64,000 nt of DNA, taken from the sequence record SRR20825019_1298; one strand, 5' to 3'. The notes below the pieces were generated by a model, which saw only the letters and a list, made by a program, of their open reading frames with translations, ran no database searches and was not told the DNA's origin. The number at the start of each line of letters is the position of its first letter. The stretch's first letter is position 1. The position numbers and the translations under genes are program-made. This document shows positions 19,844 to 52,720 of this stretch, piece after piece.

Positions 19844-20623
19844 ATGGCGAAACCTGGAATGTTGGATATTGGTTCAGTGAAGGACAAAGTGTCCGCCACA
19901 GAATGGGAAACACGGGTCAACCTTGCTGCCGCCTATCGTATGGTGGCGCATTTGGGCTGGGACGACCTGATCTATACCCATATTTCCGCCCGCATCCCCG
20001 GTACAGATCATCACTTCCTTATCAACCCGCTAGGGCTGATGTTCGAAGAGATCACCGCCTCAAGTCTTGTGAAGGTCGACCTGAGCGGCAAGCAGCTTAT
20101 GGACACACCCTTCATTCCCAACGCCGCTGGGTTTGTCATCCACAGCGCTATCCATGAAGCGCGAGACGACGCCATGTGTGTACTGCATCTGCACACAGAC
20201 TACGGCATCGCCGTCTCCAATCAAAAAAATGGTTTGCTGCCGATTTGCCAGAGCTCTATCCCACCATGGATGAGCGTTGCCTATCATGATTATGAAGGCT
20301 TTGCCGTAAATGATGGTGAGAAAGAGCGCCTGGTTGCCGATATGGGCACCAAAAACGCACTCATCTTGCGCAACCACGGCACTCTCACAGCGGGCAGCAG
20401 CGTTGCGAAAGCCTTTGAACTGATGTTCTTCCTTGAGAAGGCCTGTAAAATTCAGGTGCTGACGCAAGCAACGGGGGTGCCATTGCATGCACCCAGCAAA
20501 AGCTCACTCGACAACGCGGTGCGGGACGTGCAGGTCGTCGCTGGTGCCAATGGTGCAGATAATTTTGTCTGGCCTGCTATTTTACGTAAGATGGACAGGC
20601 TTGACCCAAGTTTCCGGGATTAA
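19844..20623 (+). CDS. Class II aldolase/adducin family protein
   Basis: THISAR, GFVIHSAIH, HLHT, LRNHG. Confidence 0.93.
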   Translation: MAKPGMLDIGSVKDKVSATEWETRVNLAAAYRMVAHLGWDDLIYTHISARIPGTDHHFLINPLGLMFEEITASSLVKVDLSGKQLMDTPFIPNAAGFVIHSAIHEARDDAMCVLHLHTDYGIAVSNQKNGLLPICQSSIPPWMSVAYHDYEGFAVNDGEKERLVADMGTKNALILRNHGTLTAGSSVAKAFELMFFLEKACKIQVLTQATGVPLHAPSKSSLDNAVRDVQVVAGANGADNFVWPAILRKMDRLDPSFRD

Positions 20624-47308: not shown

Positions 47309-48265
47309 ATGGCAACATTCAAAACTCAAGTCGTTTCTGAAAGACAAGATGGTGCGGTTTTGCTCGCTGTCGAGGAGTTGGCGCGAGGAAATCTCGTCGC
47401 AATCCCCACAGAAACCGTCTATGGTCTGGCCGCTGACGCTACGGAACTTGGTGCAGTGCAGCAAATTTATGCCGTAAAGGGCCGCCCGTCCACCAATCCG
47501 CTCATCTGCCATGTCGCCGATATCGATATGGCAAAAAAATATGTTGAGATCTCGCCTCTCGCCGAGCAGTTAATGCAGCATTTCTGGCCTGGGCCGCTTA
47601 CTTTGGTGCTTCCAAGCCTGCCGGGATTCGGTATTGCCTCACCGGTTTCGGCCGGTTTAACCACGCTGGCCGTTCGTTGTCCCGAAAGTGAAACAGCGCG
47701 GCTGATCATCGCTAAGCTGGGCAAGCCACTGGCTGCACCCAGCGCCAATCCTTCCGGCAAGTTATCGCCTACTTCAGCAAATGACGTCCTGGCTGAACTT
47801 GGCGGCCAAATACCCCTCATTGTCGATGGTGGCGACACTCAGGTAGGTATTGAATCGGCCATCATCGGCGTAACTGACGAGAAACTCACCCTGCTTCGCC
47901 CCGGCAGTATCACTGCAGATGATATTACTGCAGTTGTGCATACGCCGGTTTTCGACAGGAACAGCAACCAGATCACCGCCCCCGGCCAACTTGCAAGCCA
48001 TTACGCCCCGACGGCGAAGGTGCGGTTGAATGCGCATTCAGCGGAGGCCGGAGAAATATTGATCGGGTTTGGTGAGGTAGCTGGAGATATGAACCTTAGC
48101 GCCTCATCTAAATTAGAAGAAGCTGCGCATAACCTATTTAAATTCATGAGAAAAGCTGACTTGATGAGTCCTTCTTGCATTGCGATCGCGCCTATTCCCA
48201 ATCACGGTGTTGGCATAGCAATCAACGACCGGCTGCACCGCGCGGCAGCCCCAAGGAACCGCTGA
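47309..48265 (+). CDS. sua5: L-threonylcarbamoyladenylate synthase (Sua5/TsaC)
   Basis: PTETVYGL, KGRP, PSANPSG, HYAP. Confidence 0.93.
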   Translation: MATFKTQVVSERQDGAVLLAVEELARGNLVAIPTETVYGLAADATELGAVQQIYAVKGRPSTNPLICHVADIDMAKKYVEISPLAEQLMQHFWPGPLTLVLPSLPGFGIASPVSAGLTTLAVRCPESETARLIIAKLGKPLAAPSANPSGKLSPTSANDVLAELGGQIPLIVDGGDTQVGIESAIIGVTDEKLTLLRPGSITADDITAVVHTPVFDRNSNQITAPGQLASHYAPTAKVRLNAHSAEAGEILIGFGEVAGDMNLSASSKLEEAAHNLFKFMRKADLMSPSCIAIAPIPNHGVGIAINDRLHRAAAPRNR

Positions 48266-49683
48266 TGCTTGCGGATATTCATATCGATAATCTGCTTTCA
48301 ATAGCAGGCCCCAAGGGTGCCACTCTTGATGCATCAGTAATCGCCCCTCATCTTAGGGAGTGGCGCAATAAATTCGAAGGCCAAACCTCTTTAATGCTTA
48401 TGCCCTCAGACACGACAACCGCGGCAAAGCTCATCACCTATTGTCATGAACACCATATTCCGGTCGTTCCCCAAGGAGGCAATACGGGCCTTGTTGGCGG
48501 CGGCATTCCCGGCCTTGATGGGCGCAGCGAGGTTCTTTTCAGCACCCGCCGCATGACAGACCACTGCATTGTTAACGCTGAAGATTTCTCAATCACCGCA
48601 TCTGCTGGCAGCACTGTTGCCGCACTGCAGGCCGCTGCATCAGAAAGAGGACTTCTCTTTCCGCTTTCTCTGGCGTCTGAGGGCAGCTGCACCGTGGGTG
48701 GCGTGGTTTCCACCAACGCGGGCGGCATACATGTGCTGCGCTACGGCACCACACGCGCCCTCACCTTGGGGGTTGAAGCCGTGTTGCCAACAGGCGCTGT
48801 GGTTGATGAGTTGACCGCGCTCAGGAAAAACAACACCGGCTACAACCTCAGCCAATTGCTTGTTGGTGCGGAAGGCACCCTTGGTATCGTTACCAAGGCC
48901 ACGTTTAAACTTTACCCGCAGGAAATACAGAAACATACCTGTTTTCTCGCGGTCGAGAGCCCACAAAAAGCGCTCGCCCTAATGGCTTCCGCACGGCGCG
49001 CCACTGGTGACCGTGTTTCCGCGTTTGAGCTTATACCTCGTATGGGACTTGATTTTGTGCTGCAGCATATCCCTGGCACATCGGACCCGCTTGGCGGCAG
49101 TTATCCTTGGTATGTGTTGACAGAGATCGCGACCAGCAAACCAGATAATGCGCTGGAGGCCGAGGTTTTATCATGGCTGGAAGCAGAGCTTGCGGCAGGC
49201 ACTATCCTTGATGGAGCCGTGGCAAGCTCCCTTCAACAAGCGCAGGATTTCTGGAAGCTGAGAGAAAGCATGTCTGAGGCCCAAAAGCTGGAAGGCGGCA
49301 GCATCAAACATGATATTGCGGTTCCCGTCTCCCGCGTGCCTGCATTTCTTGAGCGGGCGACCAGCGCCGTTCAAAACTTCAACCCTGATGCGCGCCTCGT
49401 GGCATTTGGGCACTTGGGGGATGGTAACATTCATTTCAATGTCATGCAGCCTTCGGGCAGCGACAAGGCCGCTTTTTTAGCAAGCTGGGAAGAGATGAGC
49501 ACCCTCGTCCATGATATTGTCATGGAATTTGGCGGGTCCATCTCTGCCGAACACGGCATTGGCACCCTCAAAAAAGATGAGCTATCCCGACTGAAGTCCG
49601 CCAGTCAACTTGCGGCCATGAAGGCTATCAAGGCAGCCCTCGACCCACACAACATCATGAACCCCGGCTGTCTGTTTACCTGA
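48265..49683 (+). CDS. FAD-binding oxidoreductase (D-2-hydroxyglutarate/D-lactate dehydrogenase-like)
   Basis: PQGGNTGLVGG, KNNTGY, GHLGDGNIH, AEHGIG. Confidence 0.92.
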   Translation: MLADIHIDNLLSIAGPKGATLDASVIAPHLREWRNKFEGQTSLMLMPSDTTTAAKLITYCHEHHIPVVPQGGNTGLVGGGIPGLDGRSEVLFSTRRMTDHCIVNAEDFSITASAGSTVAALQAAASERGLLFPLSLASEGSCTVGGVVSTNAGGIHVLRYGTTRALTLGVEAVLPTGAVVDELTALRKNNTGYNLSQLLVGAEGTLGIVTKATFKLYPQEIQKHTCFLAVESPQKALALMASARRATGDRVSAFELIPRMGLDFVLQHIPGTSDPLGGSYPWYVLTEIATSKPDNALEAEVLSWLEAELAAGTILDGAVASSLQQAQDFWKLRESMSEAQKLEGGSIKHDIAVPVSRVPAFLERATSAVQNFNPDARLVAFGHLGDGNIHFNVMQPSGSDKAAFLASWEEMSTLVHDIVMEFGGSISAEHGIGTLKKDELSRLKSASQLAAMKAIKAALDPHNIMNPGCLFT

Positions 49684-49687
49684 GGCG

Positions 49688-50275
49688 CTATTGGTTGCGT
49701 GGTTTCACGCCGGTCTTCTGTGCGTAGAACGCCTGAATAGTAGCCATATCAGCCGCCATATCACCTGTTGGCCTGAACACTGGCCCTATGCCGATTTCGC
49801 GCTTCCTGCTGTCAACAAAGGCGAGCACGATAGGCACCTCCGCCGCCACAGCAATACGGTAAAAGCCGCTTTTCCATTTTGTGACTTTGGACCGCGTACC
49901 CTCAGGCGCAAGGCCAAGGATCAGCTCATCGTGAGATGCGAAAGCTTCCGTTGCCCGTGTTACCACAGCAGCAACATCGCCCCCCTCGCGCTCAACCGGG
50001 ATACCACCCAACCAGTAAAACAACCAGCCAAGCGGACCTTTGAAAAGAGTGTGTTTGCCAAGGAAACGTACACGTAGCCTGAACACCCCAACAATCGACA
50101 TAAACAACGGGAAATCCCAGTTGCTGGTATGTGGTGCCGCGATCGCAACAAATTTTGGGATGTCCGGTACCTCGCCAACCACTTTCCAACCGCCAAGACG
50201 AAGGATCATCTTGCCCGCACGGTATAGCAGCCCTGAGAAAAAGCGGTTTTGGTAAATGAGCCGGCTGGCCATCAA
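49688..50275 (-). CDS. Lysophospholipid acyltransferase (PlsC family)
   Basis: PHTSNWD, PEGTR. Confidence 0.92.
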   Translation of the reverse strand: MMASRLIYQNRFFSGLLYRAGKMILRLGGWKVVGEVPDIPKFVAIAAPHTSNWDFPLFMSIVGVFRLRVRFLGKHTLFKGPLGWLFYWLGGIPVEREGGDVAAVVTRATEAFASHDELILGLAPEGTRSKVTKWKSGFYRIAVAAEVPIVLAFVDSRKREIGIGPVFRPTGDMAADMATIQAFYAQKTGVKPRNQ

Positions 50276-50360
50276 TGGGGTCGTCCATCTAGGTGAGGAA
50301 ATTTAGCGTGTGCTGCTGTAGCCCATAAAATAGGGGCGGACAAGCAATTGCTATAAACCC

Positions 50361-50450
50361 AAAATTAGAGCACGACCCCACTCAGGCAAAATGGGGCCGT
50401 GCTATACTCTTTTGAGTCCCCGTCAGATCTCAGGCAAAATCTTCTAGGTG
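50361..50450 (-). ncRNA. Putative sigma54-dependent small RNA with duplicated AUUUUGCCUGAG loops
   Basis: Lies between a -24/-12 promoter and a 12-bp terminator-like stem. Three hairpins, no ORF. Confidence 0.65.
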
Positions 50451-50461
50451 CTTTAATCATC

Positions 50462-50477
50462 GCAAGCGACATGCCAA
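50462..50477 (-). promoter_or_regulatory. sigma54 (-24/-12) promoter
   Basis: TTGGCATG-TCGC-TTGC versus consensus TGGCACG-N4-TTGC. Confidence 0.78.
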
Positions 50478-50493
50478 TTTTTTTATCGTTTAT

Positions 50494-50583
50494 ATTCAAA
50501 TACTTGTAAATACAAGTCCCGAATTGAAACAAACGCCACGTCCCAATATTGTATCATATTGGCACAACGCATCAGAATGAAAC
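50494..50583. promoter_or_regulatory. IHF-like site plus repeated candidate enhancer (bEBP) sites
   Basis: ATTCAAATACTTG (1 mismatch to WATCAAN4TTR) next to a T-tract. GTCCCG-N3-TGAAAC, GTATCA-N3-TGGCAC and GCATCA-N3-TGAAAC. Confidence 0.55.
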
Positions 50584-50590
50584 ACTTGGC

Positions 50591-51727
50591 CTAGACTTTT
50601 ATGGCCGAGGCGAACACAGCTTCATCCTGTTCATCGATCCAGAGATGTGGTGCGATCCGGAGCGTGTCACCCCGGACGCTGGCCGACACATTCGCAGCCT
50701 TGAGTTTCATGAGAAGCTCATCGCCTGCCGTTCCGATATGCACACCCAACAGGTGCGGGCCCCTGTAGGCTGCGTTTACCGGCCGGAAGCCTGCATCCAA
50801 GGCCAAAGCGGCAAATCGTGCGTTCAGTGCCATCAAGGTTTCCGCAATATTCTCGATGCCCCATTCAAGCAGTTGTCTGAGCCCCTCCCTATAGATAGGG
50901 GCGAGGATGAAGTTTGATCGCTCCCCCATATCGAAGCGTCGCGCGCCTGGCTGATAATCGCTCTGGTAGTTCACGAGACGGCGGAAGTCTTCGCTAGCCT
51001 TACGTGCGATCCAGTTTTGTTCAAGTGGCTTGCCCTGTTGCCAGCGCGGCGCCACATACATAACTCCCAGGCTATAGGGACCCATCATCCATTTGTAGCC
51101 GCCTGCGATGGCAAAGTCCGGGTCAACCTTTTGCATGTCAATGGGCATTGCACCGATCGACTGGGTGAGATCAAGCACCAACGCTGCACCGATGCGTTTG
51201 CAAACAGCCGATATGCACACAAGGTCCAGCGCCGCGCCTGATGACCAATGCACGTGTGGGAGTGCCACGATGGAAATTCTGTTACCAAACTGCTCCAGAA
51301 CCTCAGTAACCGCTGTGGTCCAATCATCGTCCTTCGGCGTGGCCACCGTTATGATCTCACCGCCGACCTTGTCCGCCAACGATTGCCATTCATAAACATT
51401 GGAGGGGAACTGTTCTTCTAGTACGAGGATGGCTTCACGGGGTGCCAGCGGCAGGTTTTTTGCCGCTGTCGCCATGCCGTAGCTTACGGCAGGGATAATC
51501 GCCATACTGTCAGCATCCGCATTCAGTATCTGGCCCGCCAGGCTGCGAATCTCTTCAACAACCGGGAAAAAATCATCCGCAGAAACTTCCCATGGGTGCA
51601 TGGAAAGTGACAATGCCTCCTGCCCAGCCCTGTGCTGCTCTTTCGTTAGCGGCGTCATGTAGGCAGCGTTCAGGTAACAGATATTTCTTGGTATATCAAA
51701 AAGGTGGCGTTGAGGTGCCAGTATCAT
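50591..51727 (-). CDS. Aminotransferase class V (PLP enzyme)
   Basis: YLNAA, DLTQSIG, GGYKWMMGP, RIAPH. Confidence 0.9.
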   Translation of the reverse strand: MILAPQRHLFDIPRNICYLNAAYMTPLTKEQHRAGQEALSLSMHPWEVSADDFFPVVEEIRSLAGQILNADADSMAIIPAVSYGMATAAKNLPLAPREAILVLEEQFPSNVYEWQSLADKVGGEIITVATPKDDDWTTAVTEVLEQFGNRISIVALPHVHWSSGAALDLVCISAVCKRIGAALVLDLTQSIGAMPIDMQKVDPDFAIAGGYKWMMGPYSLGVMYVAPRWQQGKPLEQNWIARKASEDFRRLVNYQSDYQPGARRFDMGERSNFILAPIYREGLRQLLEWGIENIAETLMALNARFAALALDAGFRPVNAAYRGPHLLGVHIGTAGDELLMKLKAANVSASVRGDTLRIAPHLWIDEQDEAVFASAIKV

Positions 51728-51760: not shown

Positions 51761-52720
51761 CTAGTGGCCCCGGATCAATCGTTCGTATGCAATCAGCAAA
51801 ACACCAATAACCGATTTTGAAAACCCTGCAGCTTCCAAAAGTCGCGCCACGATTTTTTTATCGCCCTGTGCCAGCTTGCCTTCAACCGCCTCGTAAGGGC
51901 GGCCGAGCCGTACGGCAACAGCCATGGTAAACAAGCGAACATTGCCATTTTGCAAATAGTTGAGCAATACGTCTGAAGTTAGCCCTTCTATGGCCATCAA
52001 CTGCTTGAGGTAGTTATCTATTTCGGAAAGCGGCGCCATCTCAAGCGTGCGTGAGAAAACCTGCCGGTTGGCCATTGAGACAAGGTAAGACGCATAGTCT
52101 GTTGCAAGCCCGAACTTTTCCGACAGATACTCGCCGTAACGCCTTGATACCTTGAAGATGATGCGCTCGACAACAATCGGCGGCAGATCTGCGCGTTCCG
52201 CCAACTTCTCCATCAAACTACGTTCTTCCGGGAACCGCTCAACAACACGGTTGCAACTGCGTTCTGAAACTTCGGCGCCATCATTCTCTATCAAGCAACA
52301 CACCGCATCAAGGGAGCCAACATCGCTGATGGCAAAACTCACCGCCTCGGACAAGCAGGAACGCTGCGCAATGGCTTGCTGGGCGTTGGCGCCGCAACTC
52401 CGCACGATCTCTTCCAGGAAAGCATCATCAATGGCTTGGGACGCCATAAGGAACGGCATGGAGACTTGATCAATATCCTGTGAAAGTTTAGAAACCAACT
52501 CAAGCGGCAAAAAGCTACACGTACGCAACTCTTTGGCCAATGCCTCGCGTACAGATACCGCTACGTCTTCAACAAGCAACTGCGCCAACTGAAGGGCGTC
52601 TTCGTTGCCGTTGCCATTTTCCTGCCGAGCGAGAATTCTGCCGACTTTACGCGCGATCTCTTCGCGCGCGTTCTGGTCGATGTTTCTGAGTTCTTCCATC
52701 TGCGAAATATCGATACTCAT
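51761..52720 (-). CDS. DUF2336-like protein
   Basis: Helical protein with D..V.VR.ALA, AIAQR and L.EN.GA patterns. Confidence 0.75.
   Translation of the reverse strand: MSIDISQMEELRNIDQNAREEIARKVGRILARQENGNGNEDALQLAQLLVEDVAVSVREALAKELRTCSFLPLELVSKLSQDIDQVSMPFLMASQAIDDAFLEEIVRSCGANAQQAIAQRSCLSEAVSFAISDVGSLDAVCCLIENDGAEVSERSCNRVVERFPEERSLMEKLAERADLPPIVVERIIFKVSRRYGEYLSEKFGLATDYASYLVSMANRQVFSRTLEMAPLSEIDNYLKQLMAIEGLTSDVLLNYLQNGNVRLFTMAVAVRLGRPYEAVEGKLAQGDKKIVARLLEAAGFSKSVIGVLLIAYERLIRGH

Follow-up and report, generated by a model that had tools for sequence, protein, structure and literature searches.

A conserved small RNA gene with a sigma-54-type promoter and duplicated loop motifs in the marine genus Kordiimonas, and its predicted Tad/Flp pilus targets

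Background

Does the segment between positions 50361 and 50477 of sequence record SRR20825019_1298 hold an independent gene for a small RNA (sRNA), and if so, by what is it driven and on which messages would it act? The segment belongs to a 64,000-nt stretch of Kordiimonas DNA, analyzed here as a whole and hereafter called the window. An earlier note on this DNA had proposed that the minus strand of the segment encodes an unannotated, independent sRNA with a sigma-54-type promoter and two identical motifs displayed in hairpin loops. Comparative data support this proposal, since the promoter, the loop motifs and the stems are all conserved, and the element, which we name sRNA-A, is genuine: a small regulatory RNA gene of this marine genus that had not been described before. 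It occurs as a single copy in the genome (4.18 Mb, one contig).

To our knowledge few sigma-54-dependent small RNAs have been described in Alphaproteobacteria. Full-text searches of the literature listed no paper on an sRNA of Kordiimonas or on sRNA control of the Tad/Flp pilus (cpaA), and no such RNA under sigma-54-dependent sRNAs or LuxO/Qrr in alphaproteobacteria; the Caulobacter family treated in PMC12559287 is unrelated. Rfam 15 gave no match at gathering thresholds across the 64-kb window. When positions 50200-50650 were searched in E-value mode, the best match was GibS (23.3 bits, E 0.45; its threshold is 115), followed by three weaker chance matches, and up to E 10 the Qrr model (RF00378) gave no match. 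The novelty of the RNA thus stands, no Rfam family having been matched.

In this work we describe the structure, distribution and promoter of sRNA-A, a sibling gene with the same promoter architecture (sRNA-B), a candidate activator (EBP1) and the predicted targets of both RNAs. The best explanation, which we consider probable, is that a gene of its own encodes sRNA-A, a trans-acting sRNA whose seeds would silence genes of the Tad/Flp pilus, and that EBP1 and sigma-54 drive it.

Results

Conserved fold and loop motifs of sRNA-A

The promoter TTGGCATGTCGCTTGC has the canonical GG-N10-GC spacing and is followed by the three hairpins that the first reading had described (Table 1). The 12-nt motif ATTTTGCCTGAG is indeed found twice, at 50440-50429 and 50392-50381 on the minus strand, centred on the loops of hairpins 1 and 3. 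The predicted fold energy of the 92-nt stretch is -38.0 kcal/mol, as compared with -22.9 +/- 2.9 kcal/mol for shuffled sequences (z -5.1; none of 200 shuffles as good), and the terminator scan reported hairpin 3 with 15 pairs. In an alignment of ten sequences of one architecture (class I) no variation occurs in the block TTTTGCCTGAGATCTG, within seed 1, or in the second TTTTGCCTGAG, whereas the stems differ, and in the outer helix of hairpin 1 a CG pair is replaced by UA in five of the ten. Over this alignment 13 of the 36 predicted pairs have changed on both sides, against at most 3 in slid controls, and 96.6% of the paired cells can pair, against at most 52% with the partners slid, values reached by none of 500 shuffles; these figures hold for the 10-sequence alignment, a 15-sequence alignment having misaligned the stems so that RNAalifold lost them. 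Other genomes carry a second architecture (class II, e.g. L078, L079 and L103) with quite different stems and an identical loop motif.

An open reading frame (ORF) of 55 amino acids at 50365-50532 was rejected as coding, for it starts upstream of the promoter and is broken by single-base indels in relatives.

Distribution and gene neighbourhood

A scan for the doubled motif, made with one genome per species, gave 95 stretches, mostly coding sequences or tandem repeats, together with glycine riboswitches on the opposite strand; stretches with a promoter upstream were found at no fewer than 12 loci (at least 12), in Kordiimonas and in one metagenome-assembled genome of Alphaproteobacteria. A strict pattern, in which TTTGCCTGAG stands 15-45 nt after the promoter, was then searched in the 401 genomes of the order and matched 25 of them, this genome included, with no match anywhere for the reversed-pattern control. 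The matches comprise 18 of the 31 Kordiimonas genomes, 2/2 of the sister genus (g4), 2/2 of family f6, 1/9 of family f2 and 1/7 of family f9, and none of the 275 and 42 genomes of families f7 and f8, respectively. The f9 match was judged to be due to chance, being G+C-rich and without palindromes. A relaxed two-motif pattern added six genomes of the genus in which promoter and palindromes were verified (G029, G028, G006, G024, G026 and G011), raising the count to at least 24 of 31; G020, G021, G031 and G016 matched it as strings only, and G015, G003 and G025 yielded nothing convincing with it. Pattern searches were required, as BLAST alone detected sRNA-A in 9 of the 31.

The homolog search called for by the earlier note thus reveals a conserved syntenic gene across Kordiimonas and three neighbouring lineages. 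The RNA always lies 3′ of a class-V aminotransferase or DUF2336 gene and precedes an acyltransferase or FAD-oxidase gene. At five of the 25 loci compared (L127, L128, L138, L144 and L146) the acyltransferase gene is missing and the RNA faces the convergent FAD-oxidase gene; therefore the RNA is not the leader of the acyltransferase gene, in agreement with the view that it is not the 5′ untranslated region of that gene, and it has a terminator of its own. With its own promoter, terminator hairpins and a downstream gene that varies between loci, sRNA-A behaves as an independent transcription unit.

The 3′ end of sRNA-A

In relatives the tract CUAAUUUU that follows hairpin 3 is replaced by CUAAACUACG, and termination falls after a fourth hairpin, GCGGACGGG...CCTGTCCGC, with its U-run. 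The fourth hairpin is intact there; here its 5′ arm has decayed, and its energy is -7.5 kcal/mol against -17.5 kcal/mol in the closest relative. Therefore the 3′ end of sRNA-A would lie at about 50361 or at about 50327, giving a probable length of about 90-125 nt. One detail of the first reading did not hold: the sequence TTGTCC-N17-TACAGC (50343-50315), taken as a separate promoter of the acyltransferase gene, was not reported by the promoter scan, and its TTGTCC is part of the conserved 3′ arm CTTGTCCGCC of the fourth hairpin. It is more likely a remnant of the ancestral terminator.

Promoter architecture and the sibling gene sRNA-B

Three upstream activator sites, copies of a 17-bp palindrome, precede the sRNA-A promoter (Table 1). 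The A/T-rich spacer between them and the promoter may be a DNA-bending site of the IHF type. The genome contains 29 TGGCAY-N5-TTGC sites, of which two are accompanied by palindromes, that of sRNA-A and a second at 658752. The same two places hold the only clusters of three palindromes in the genome, the one at sRNA-A (274322-274391) being found with a loose form of the palindrome. The second site belongs to sRNA-B (genome position about 658752-658945), which combines three palindromes, the sigma-54 promoter TGGCACACCCGTTGCG and a strong terminator with two hairpin loops carrying GCUGCCAC; its repeated loop motif, GCUGCCA, is unlike that of sRNA-A. A pattern search recovered sRNA-B in 26 of the 31 genomes of the genus, and similarity disclosed it also in G002, G019, G006 and G031; by pattern it was found in neither of the two genomes of the sister genus. 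In G002 (L282) and G019 (L283) the -12 element of the sRNA-B promoter reads TTGA instead of TTGC, with both the RNA and its three palindromes retained.

Elsewhere in the window, at about 20467-20482 on the minus strand (genome position 244289), there is a sigma-54-like TGGCAC-N5-TTGC site, TGGCACCCCCGTTGCT, without palindromes.

Candidate activator

The genome encodes sigma-54 (rpoN, 2248480-2249979) and seven enhancer-binding proteins: FlbD, NtrC, NtrX, PspF, a regulator of the PEP-CTERM type, a LuxO-like protein and a generic response regulator, EBP1. The last is an orphan response regulator of the NtrC family (1186391-1187836), whose homologues are all labelled as generic sigma-54-dependent regulators; it may be an orthologue of Caulobacter TacA. 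Between an alanine-dehydrogenase gene and EBP1 lies the strictly conserved 17-mer TGTCCTGAAATGATACA (1186315-1186331), identical to an sRNA-B palindrome on the other strand. Here and in the relatives examined, 55-75 nt separate the box from the EBP1 start codon downstream. If one mismatch is allowed, 28 of the 31 genomes of the genus contain it, usually once, and it stands beside the EBP1 orthologue wherever the coordinates of both were listed. This looks like autoregulation by a protein that would also bind the sRNA promoters. EBP1 is therefore a better candidate than the LuxO-like protein and the likely activator, and sRNA-A and sRNA-B would be its only recognisable sigma-54 outputs in this genome.

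The LuxO-like protein (2241862-2243259, minus strand; L118) scores 595 bits with the Vibrio LuxO model, for which the cut-off is 800, the next best family reaching 389. Its gene lies 5 kb from rpoN and is divergent from a gene for a small PilZ-domain protein (2243425, plus strand), and orthologues in 41 of 61 relatives broadly cover the range of the sRNA. As first-choice activator it was downgraded, as the shared box adjoins EBP1 instead. Among 20 genomes no sRNA or sigma-54 promoter was found beside the LuxO-like gene, and one LuxO-type box was seen, in G029. A small ORF that follows the gene looks spurious.

Predicted targets in the Tad/Flp cluster

The earlier note had left a choice between a protein sponge and a seed-pairing sRNA; target prediction favours the latter and disfavours the former. 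Loop-only seeds were ranked against 3683 start regions (-40 to +10) taken from crude gene calls with the flp gene added, and they replaced seeds that included the G+C-rich stems, with which the ranking was uninformative. Seed 1 of sRNA-A placed cpaA, the gene of the prepilin peptidase, first of 3683 (-25.8 kcal/mol, z -6.1), and seed 2 placed a tadG-like gene eighth (z -3.6), while the two loops of sRNA-B placed the flp pilin gene fourth (loop 1, z -3.6) and eighth (loop 2, z -3.7). The three genes each open a transcription unit in a single Tad/Flp cluster (genome 2806198-2813387); the other top-ranked start regions have no common theme.

None of 40 shuffled versions of seed 1 reached -25.8 kcal/mol on any start region. 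The cpaA site, UCAGAUCUCAGGCA, occupies positions -21 to -8 from the start codon and is the only start-region match among seven genome-wide matches of at least 13 nt. Its partners in hairpin 1 are the loop and the 3′ stem arm, and because of this pairing AUCUG in that arm would be held invariant beyond structural need. In 11 of the 24 genomes with both sequences the duplex of seed 1 with cpaA has -22 to -30 kcal/mol, with none of 200 shuffles as good; these are the genomes with a loop 1 of the GAGAUCU type, except G005 and G002.

Of 28 leader windows of the tadG-like gene, 22 contain TCAGGCA, the complement of the loop motif, often in two or three copies, as do 18 of 29 windows of cpaA; the reverse-complement control was found in neither set. 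The rest of these loci has 7 such sites in 120 kb and 20 in 98 kb. Across the genus the tadG-like leaders contain one to three UCAGGCA(A) boxes. The flp leader UUGGCAGCUGGAG is nearly invariant in the 29 leaders compared and pairs over 12 bp (one G-U) with CUCCGGCUGCCA of sRNA-B. In G006 both sides are altered in a compensatory manner, the flp leader reading UGGCAGUUGG and loop 2 of sRNA-B CCAACUGCCA; the flp leader of the sister genus is without UGGCAGC. An hfq gene is present in the genome.

In the genome CTCAGGCAAAA is over-represented (11 sites against about 2 expected, e.g. G000 C1 3336807 and 1996608), the excess being due to TCAGGCAAAAC, which encodes the Walker-A residues Ser-Gly-Lys-Thr. 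Most of the 11-mer matches situated inside genes are accounted for by these codons and were set aside as sRNA targets.

Table 1 Features of the sRNA-A locus and position of sRNA-B (window coordinates unless a contig is named)
Feature	Position	Strand	Sequence	Remarks
Upstream activator site 1	50568..50584	-	TGTTTCATTCTGATGCG	Degenerate copy of the 17-bp palindrome TGTNNCA-N3-TGNNACA; aligned, conserved in relatives
Upstream activator site 2	50550..50566	-	TGTGCCAATATGATACA	Matches the palindrome at 10/10 specified positions; conserved in relatives
Upstream activator site 3	50515..50531	-	TGTTTCAATTCGGGACT	17-bp palindrome; conserved in relatives
A/T-rich spacer	50481..50514	-		Conserved TTGA(A/T) core, between activator sites and promoter; in relatives e.g. 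CATTGAAATATA
Sigma-54 promoter	50462..50477	-	TTGGCATGTCGCTTGC	-24 GG, -12 GC; TGGCAY-N5-YTGC at the same place in 24 verified genomes of the genus and 5 outside it
Hairpin 1	50419..50448	-		Predicted fold; outer CCU/GGG helix (co-varying) and inner stem, motif copy 1
Seed 1	50423..50440	-	AUUUUGCCUGAGAUCUGA	14-nt complement of the cpaA ribosome-binding site at nucleotides 50436-50423
Hairpin 2	50406..50417	-	ACUC-AAAA-GAGU	Predicted fold; conserved, one compensatory pair
Hairpin 3	50369..50403	-		Predicted fold and terminator scan; stem of 12-15 bp, motif copy 2; 7/12 pairs changed on both sides
Hairpin 3 loop and 3′ flank	within the region 50369..50403	-	UUGCCUGAGU	10 nt complementary to the tadG-like leader
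Tract after hairpin 3	50361..50368	-	CUAAUUUU	Intrinsic termination may occur here in this genome
Decayed fourth hairpin and U-run	50327..50360	-	GGGTTTATAGCAATTGCTTGTCCGCCCCTATTTT	Ancestral family terminator, alternative 3′ end; from alignment
sRNA-B	about 658630-658945 of G000 contig C1 (L171 2131-2451)	+		Three palindromes, sigma-54 promoter, strong terminator

The conserved neighbours of sRNA-A in the window are a FAD-linked oxidase gene (GlcD-like, 48175-49683, plus strand), the class-V aminotransferase gene (50591-51727, minus strand) and the gene of a DUF2336 protein (51761-52720, minus strand).

Discussion

Proposed mechanism

What the comparison shows is a conserved gene with a co-varying structure, a promoter architecture common to both sRNAs, and a complementarity to the pilus leaders that is itself conserved. 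The probable course of events that we propose starts with a signal that would activate the orphan regulator EBP1. EBP1 would then occupy the three 17-bp palindromes, so that sigma-54 RNA polymerase could open the promoter and sRNA-A and sRNA-B accumulate. Each sRNA presents one short sequence twice in its hairpin loops, and these copies, judged by their complementarity to the leaders and its conservation, would act as seeds. Seed 1, UGCCUGAGAUCUGA, would pair with the Shine-Dalgarno region of cpaA, first gene of the operon for prepilin peptidase, CpaB and secretin; seed 2, UUGCCUGAGU, would pair with the tadG-like leader, and CUCCGGCUGCCA of sRNA-B with the Shine-Dalgarno sequence of the flp pilin gene. 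Pairing at ribosome-binding sites would most likely block translation, probably with the help of Hfq, and production of the Tad/Flp pilus would be switched off post-transcriptionally.

A wider proposal is offered tentatively, as an idea that may well prove wrong: the system might be a dedicated post-transcriptional attachment switch in which an orphan enhancer-binding protein has two sRNAs as its only sigma-54 outputs, each with a duplicated seed, and together they cover three Tad/Flp leaders, sRNA-B that of the pilin gene and sRNA-A those of the cpaA-cpaB-cpaC and tadG-like operons. Such a switch would parallel LuxO-Qrr in an alphaproteobacterium, with RNAs that are unrelated, and the same seed of sRNA-A may also invade aptamer 1 of a glycine riboswitch. 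Were this model true, a compact circuit of one regulator, two RNAs and three pilus leaders would control adhesion in marine bacteria, and it would provide a natural case of duplicated seeds in one RNA matching tandem target boxes; the invasion of aptamer 1, if true, would have an sRNA acting on a riboswitch core. Independently of the model, two new RNA families have been defined as candidates for Rfam, as has a binding box for an uncharacterised regulator that is widely conserved in the order (55 of 61 relatives).

Several points weigh against silencing of the pilus by an EBP1-driven sRNA-A. No RNA run containing the locus was listed; of four runs compared with the window, one gave coverage of the DNA type and another, RNA only by guess, a single 271-nt contig elsewhere in the stretch, which has no bearing on expression. 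The sRNA-A transcript and its dependence on sigma-54 are both read from the sequence alone, the gene starts used for the ranking come from a crude ORF caller, and the related genomes are non-independent samples. Pairing with cpaA is no better than that of shuffled seeds in 13 of the 24 genomes and is strong only with the GAGAUCU loop; the best energy of loop 1 of sRNA-B is unexceptional, being reached by 14 of 25 shuffles. UCAGGCA overlaps the position of the Shine-Dalgarno sequence, and its conservation could have another cause. In genomes beyond the genus TCAGGCA is lacking from the tadG-like leader (four of four checked), and the cpaA leaders offer matches of only 7-9 nt; since the seed of sRNA-A is kept in three families, it may have an older target. 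Finally, the candidate activator was assigned by one shared box, and the LuxO-like regulator is a possible alternative.

Alternative explanations

The nearest alternative, which we regard as unlikely, retains a base-pairing sRNA and gives it other main targets, the matches in the Tad leaders being secondary or fortuitous. In its favour, conservation of the sRNA-A seed reaches further than the Tad sites do. The other targets that come into question are the small PilZ-domain gene, with a 12-nt complement of the sRNA-A loop in its leader that is conserved in the four closest genomes, a GNAT gene (2775908-2776426) with two sites upstream, and the gene of a TPR protein (1635491), which ranks second and third for the two seeds. 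Of 20 genomes, though, 16 are without the pilZ site, and none of the candidates was seen to be conserved beyond close relatives; the remaining top matches are without functional theme, as against three Tad operon leaders matched by four seeds of two co-regulated RNAs.

That sRNA-A is a protein sponge, its two UUUUGCCUGAG hairpins mimicking the site of an RNA-binding protein and titrating that protein in the manner of CsrB or CrcZ, seems improbable. In favour of a sponge, two hairpin loops display the motif, which stays invariant as the stems drift, and messages with the same hairpin would be the natural targets of the protein. One such hairpin in the same sense, GUUUU-GCCUGAG-AAAAC, is located about 30 nt upstream of the start of a CAAX-protease gene (514384, with a leuA-like gene on the other side) and is the only hint toward protein binding; the sense motif also occurs upstream of the LuxO-like gene. 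The RNA has two such loops, both GCCUGAG and neither with GGA, so that both the many GGA loops of the CsrB/RsmZ type and the A-rich motif of other known sponges are lacking, and no candidate protein was identified. Moreover, it is the complement of the motif that is enriched in the Tad leaders, with none in the sense control, and the block of invariant nucleotides reaches into the 3′ stem arm (AUCUG), which matches the cpaA site.

It is still harder to credit that sRNA-A is primarily an anti-riboswitch RNA, whose loops would pair with the 3′ core UCUCAGGCAAAA of glycine riboswitch aptamer 1 and prevent its ligand-dependent folding. The genome has a single tandem glycine riboswitch (69.3 and 51.8 bits; 3395737-3395949, plus strand) upstream of a gcvT-like gene, its aptamer 1 includes a perfect 12-nt complement to loop 1, and the core is kept in 8 of 11 genomes examined, so that an invariant target would account for the invariant seed. 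A riboswitch core is conserved for reasons of its own, however, and its conservation is no test of the match. The core variants of G049 (GGCUUCAGG) and G041 (GGCCAAAGG) are not followed by the sRNA, whose loops keep UUUGCC; aptamer 2 matches over 6-7 nt only, and the lead arose only in hindsight, out of the scan for the doubled motif.

Lastly, a cis-acting leader or attenuator of the acyltransferase gene, with no separate RNA, is scarcely credible: sRNA-A lies on the same strand, 86 nt upstream of the start of that gene at 50275, but strong terminator hairpins stand in between, and at the 5/25 loci that lack the gene the RNA abuts a convergent gene.

Comparison with known systems

As the EBP1-driven base-pairing RNA that we favour, sRNA-A is best compared with the sigma-54-dependent sRNAs of other bacteria, the nearest in outline being Qrr1-5 of Vibrio, which are driven by LuxO plus sigma-54. 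In both cases the recognisable sigma-54 outputs of an enhancer-binding protein of the response-regulator type are, or here would be, small RNAs; in both the sigma-54 promoter is preceded by several activator sites (here GG-N10-GC and three conserved 17-bp palindromes), the RNAs are about 100 nt long with multiple hairpins and predicted pairing at ribosome-binding sites, and a LuxO-like gene is present in the genome. The Qrr RNAs share one 32-nt block, whereas the seeds of sRNA-A and sRNA-B differ from each other and each is duplicated within one RNA. The activator of Qrr is LuxO, while the better activator candidate here is a protein other than the LuxO-like one, and Qrr act on master regulators, while the targets predicted here are pilus genes.

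GlmY and GlmZ of Enterobacteriaceae are controlled by GlrR plus sigma-54 and resemble the present pair in having three activator palindromes, an A/T-rich spacer and a sigma-54 promoter before the sRNA gene, and in one regulator common to two related RNAs. They belong to another lineage and share neither sequence nor an Rfam match with sRNA-A, which has no link to glmS, and GlmY works by protein sequestration. NrsZ of Pseudomonas, controlled by NtrC plus sigma-54, likewise is built of repeated stem-loop modules, each with the same seed, and affects surface behaviour; it has three modules as against two here, where evidence of processing is lacking, and its sequence is unrelated and its targets are other than those predicted for sRNA-A. 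With the sponges CsrB/RsmZ and CrcZ, the last of which is sigma-54-dependent, sRNA-A has in common a motif repeated in hairpin loops, but it has two copies only, of GCCUGAG and not of GGA or an A-rich run, and the complement of its motif is enriched at target ribosome-binding sites. We place sRNA-A as a new family within the sigma-54-dependent base-pairing sRNAs; it belongs to none of LuxO-Qrr, GlmY/GlmZ and NrsZ.

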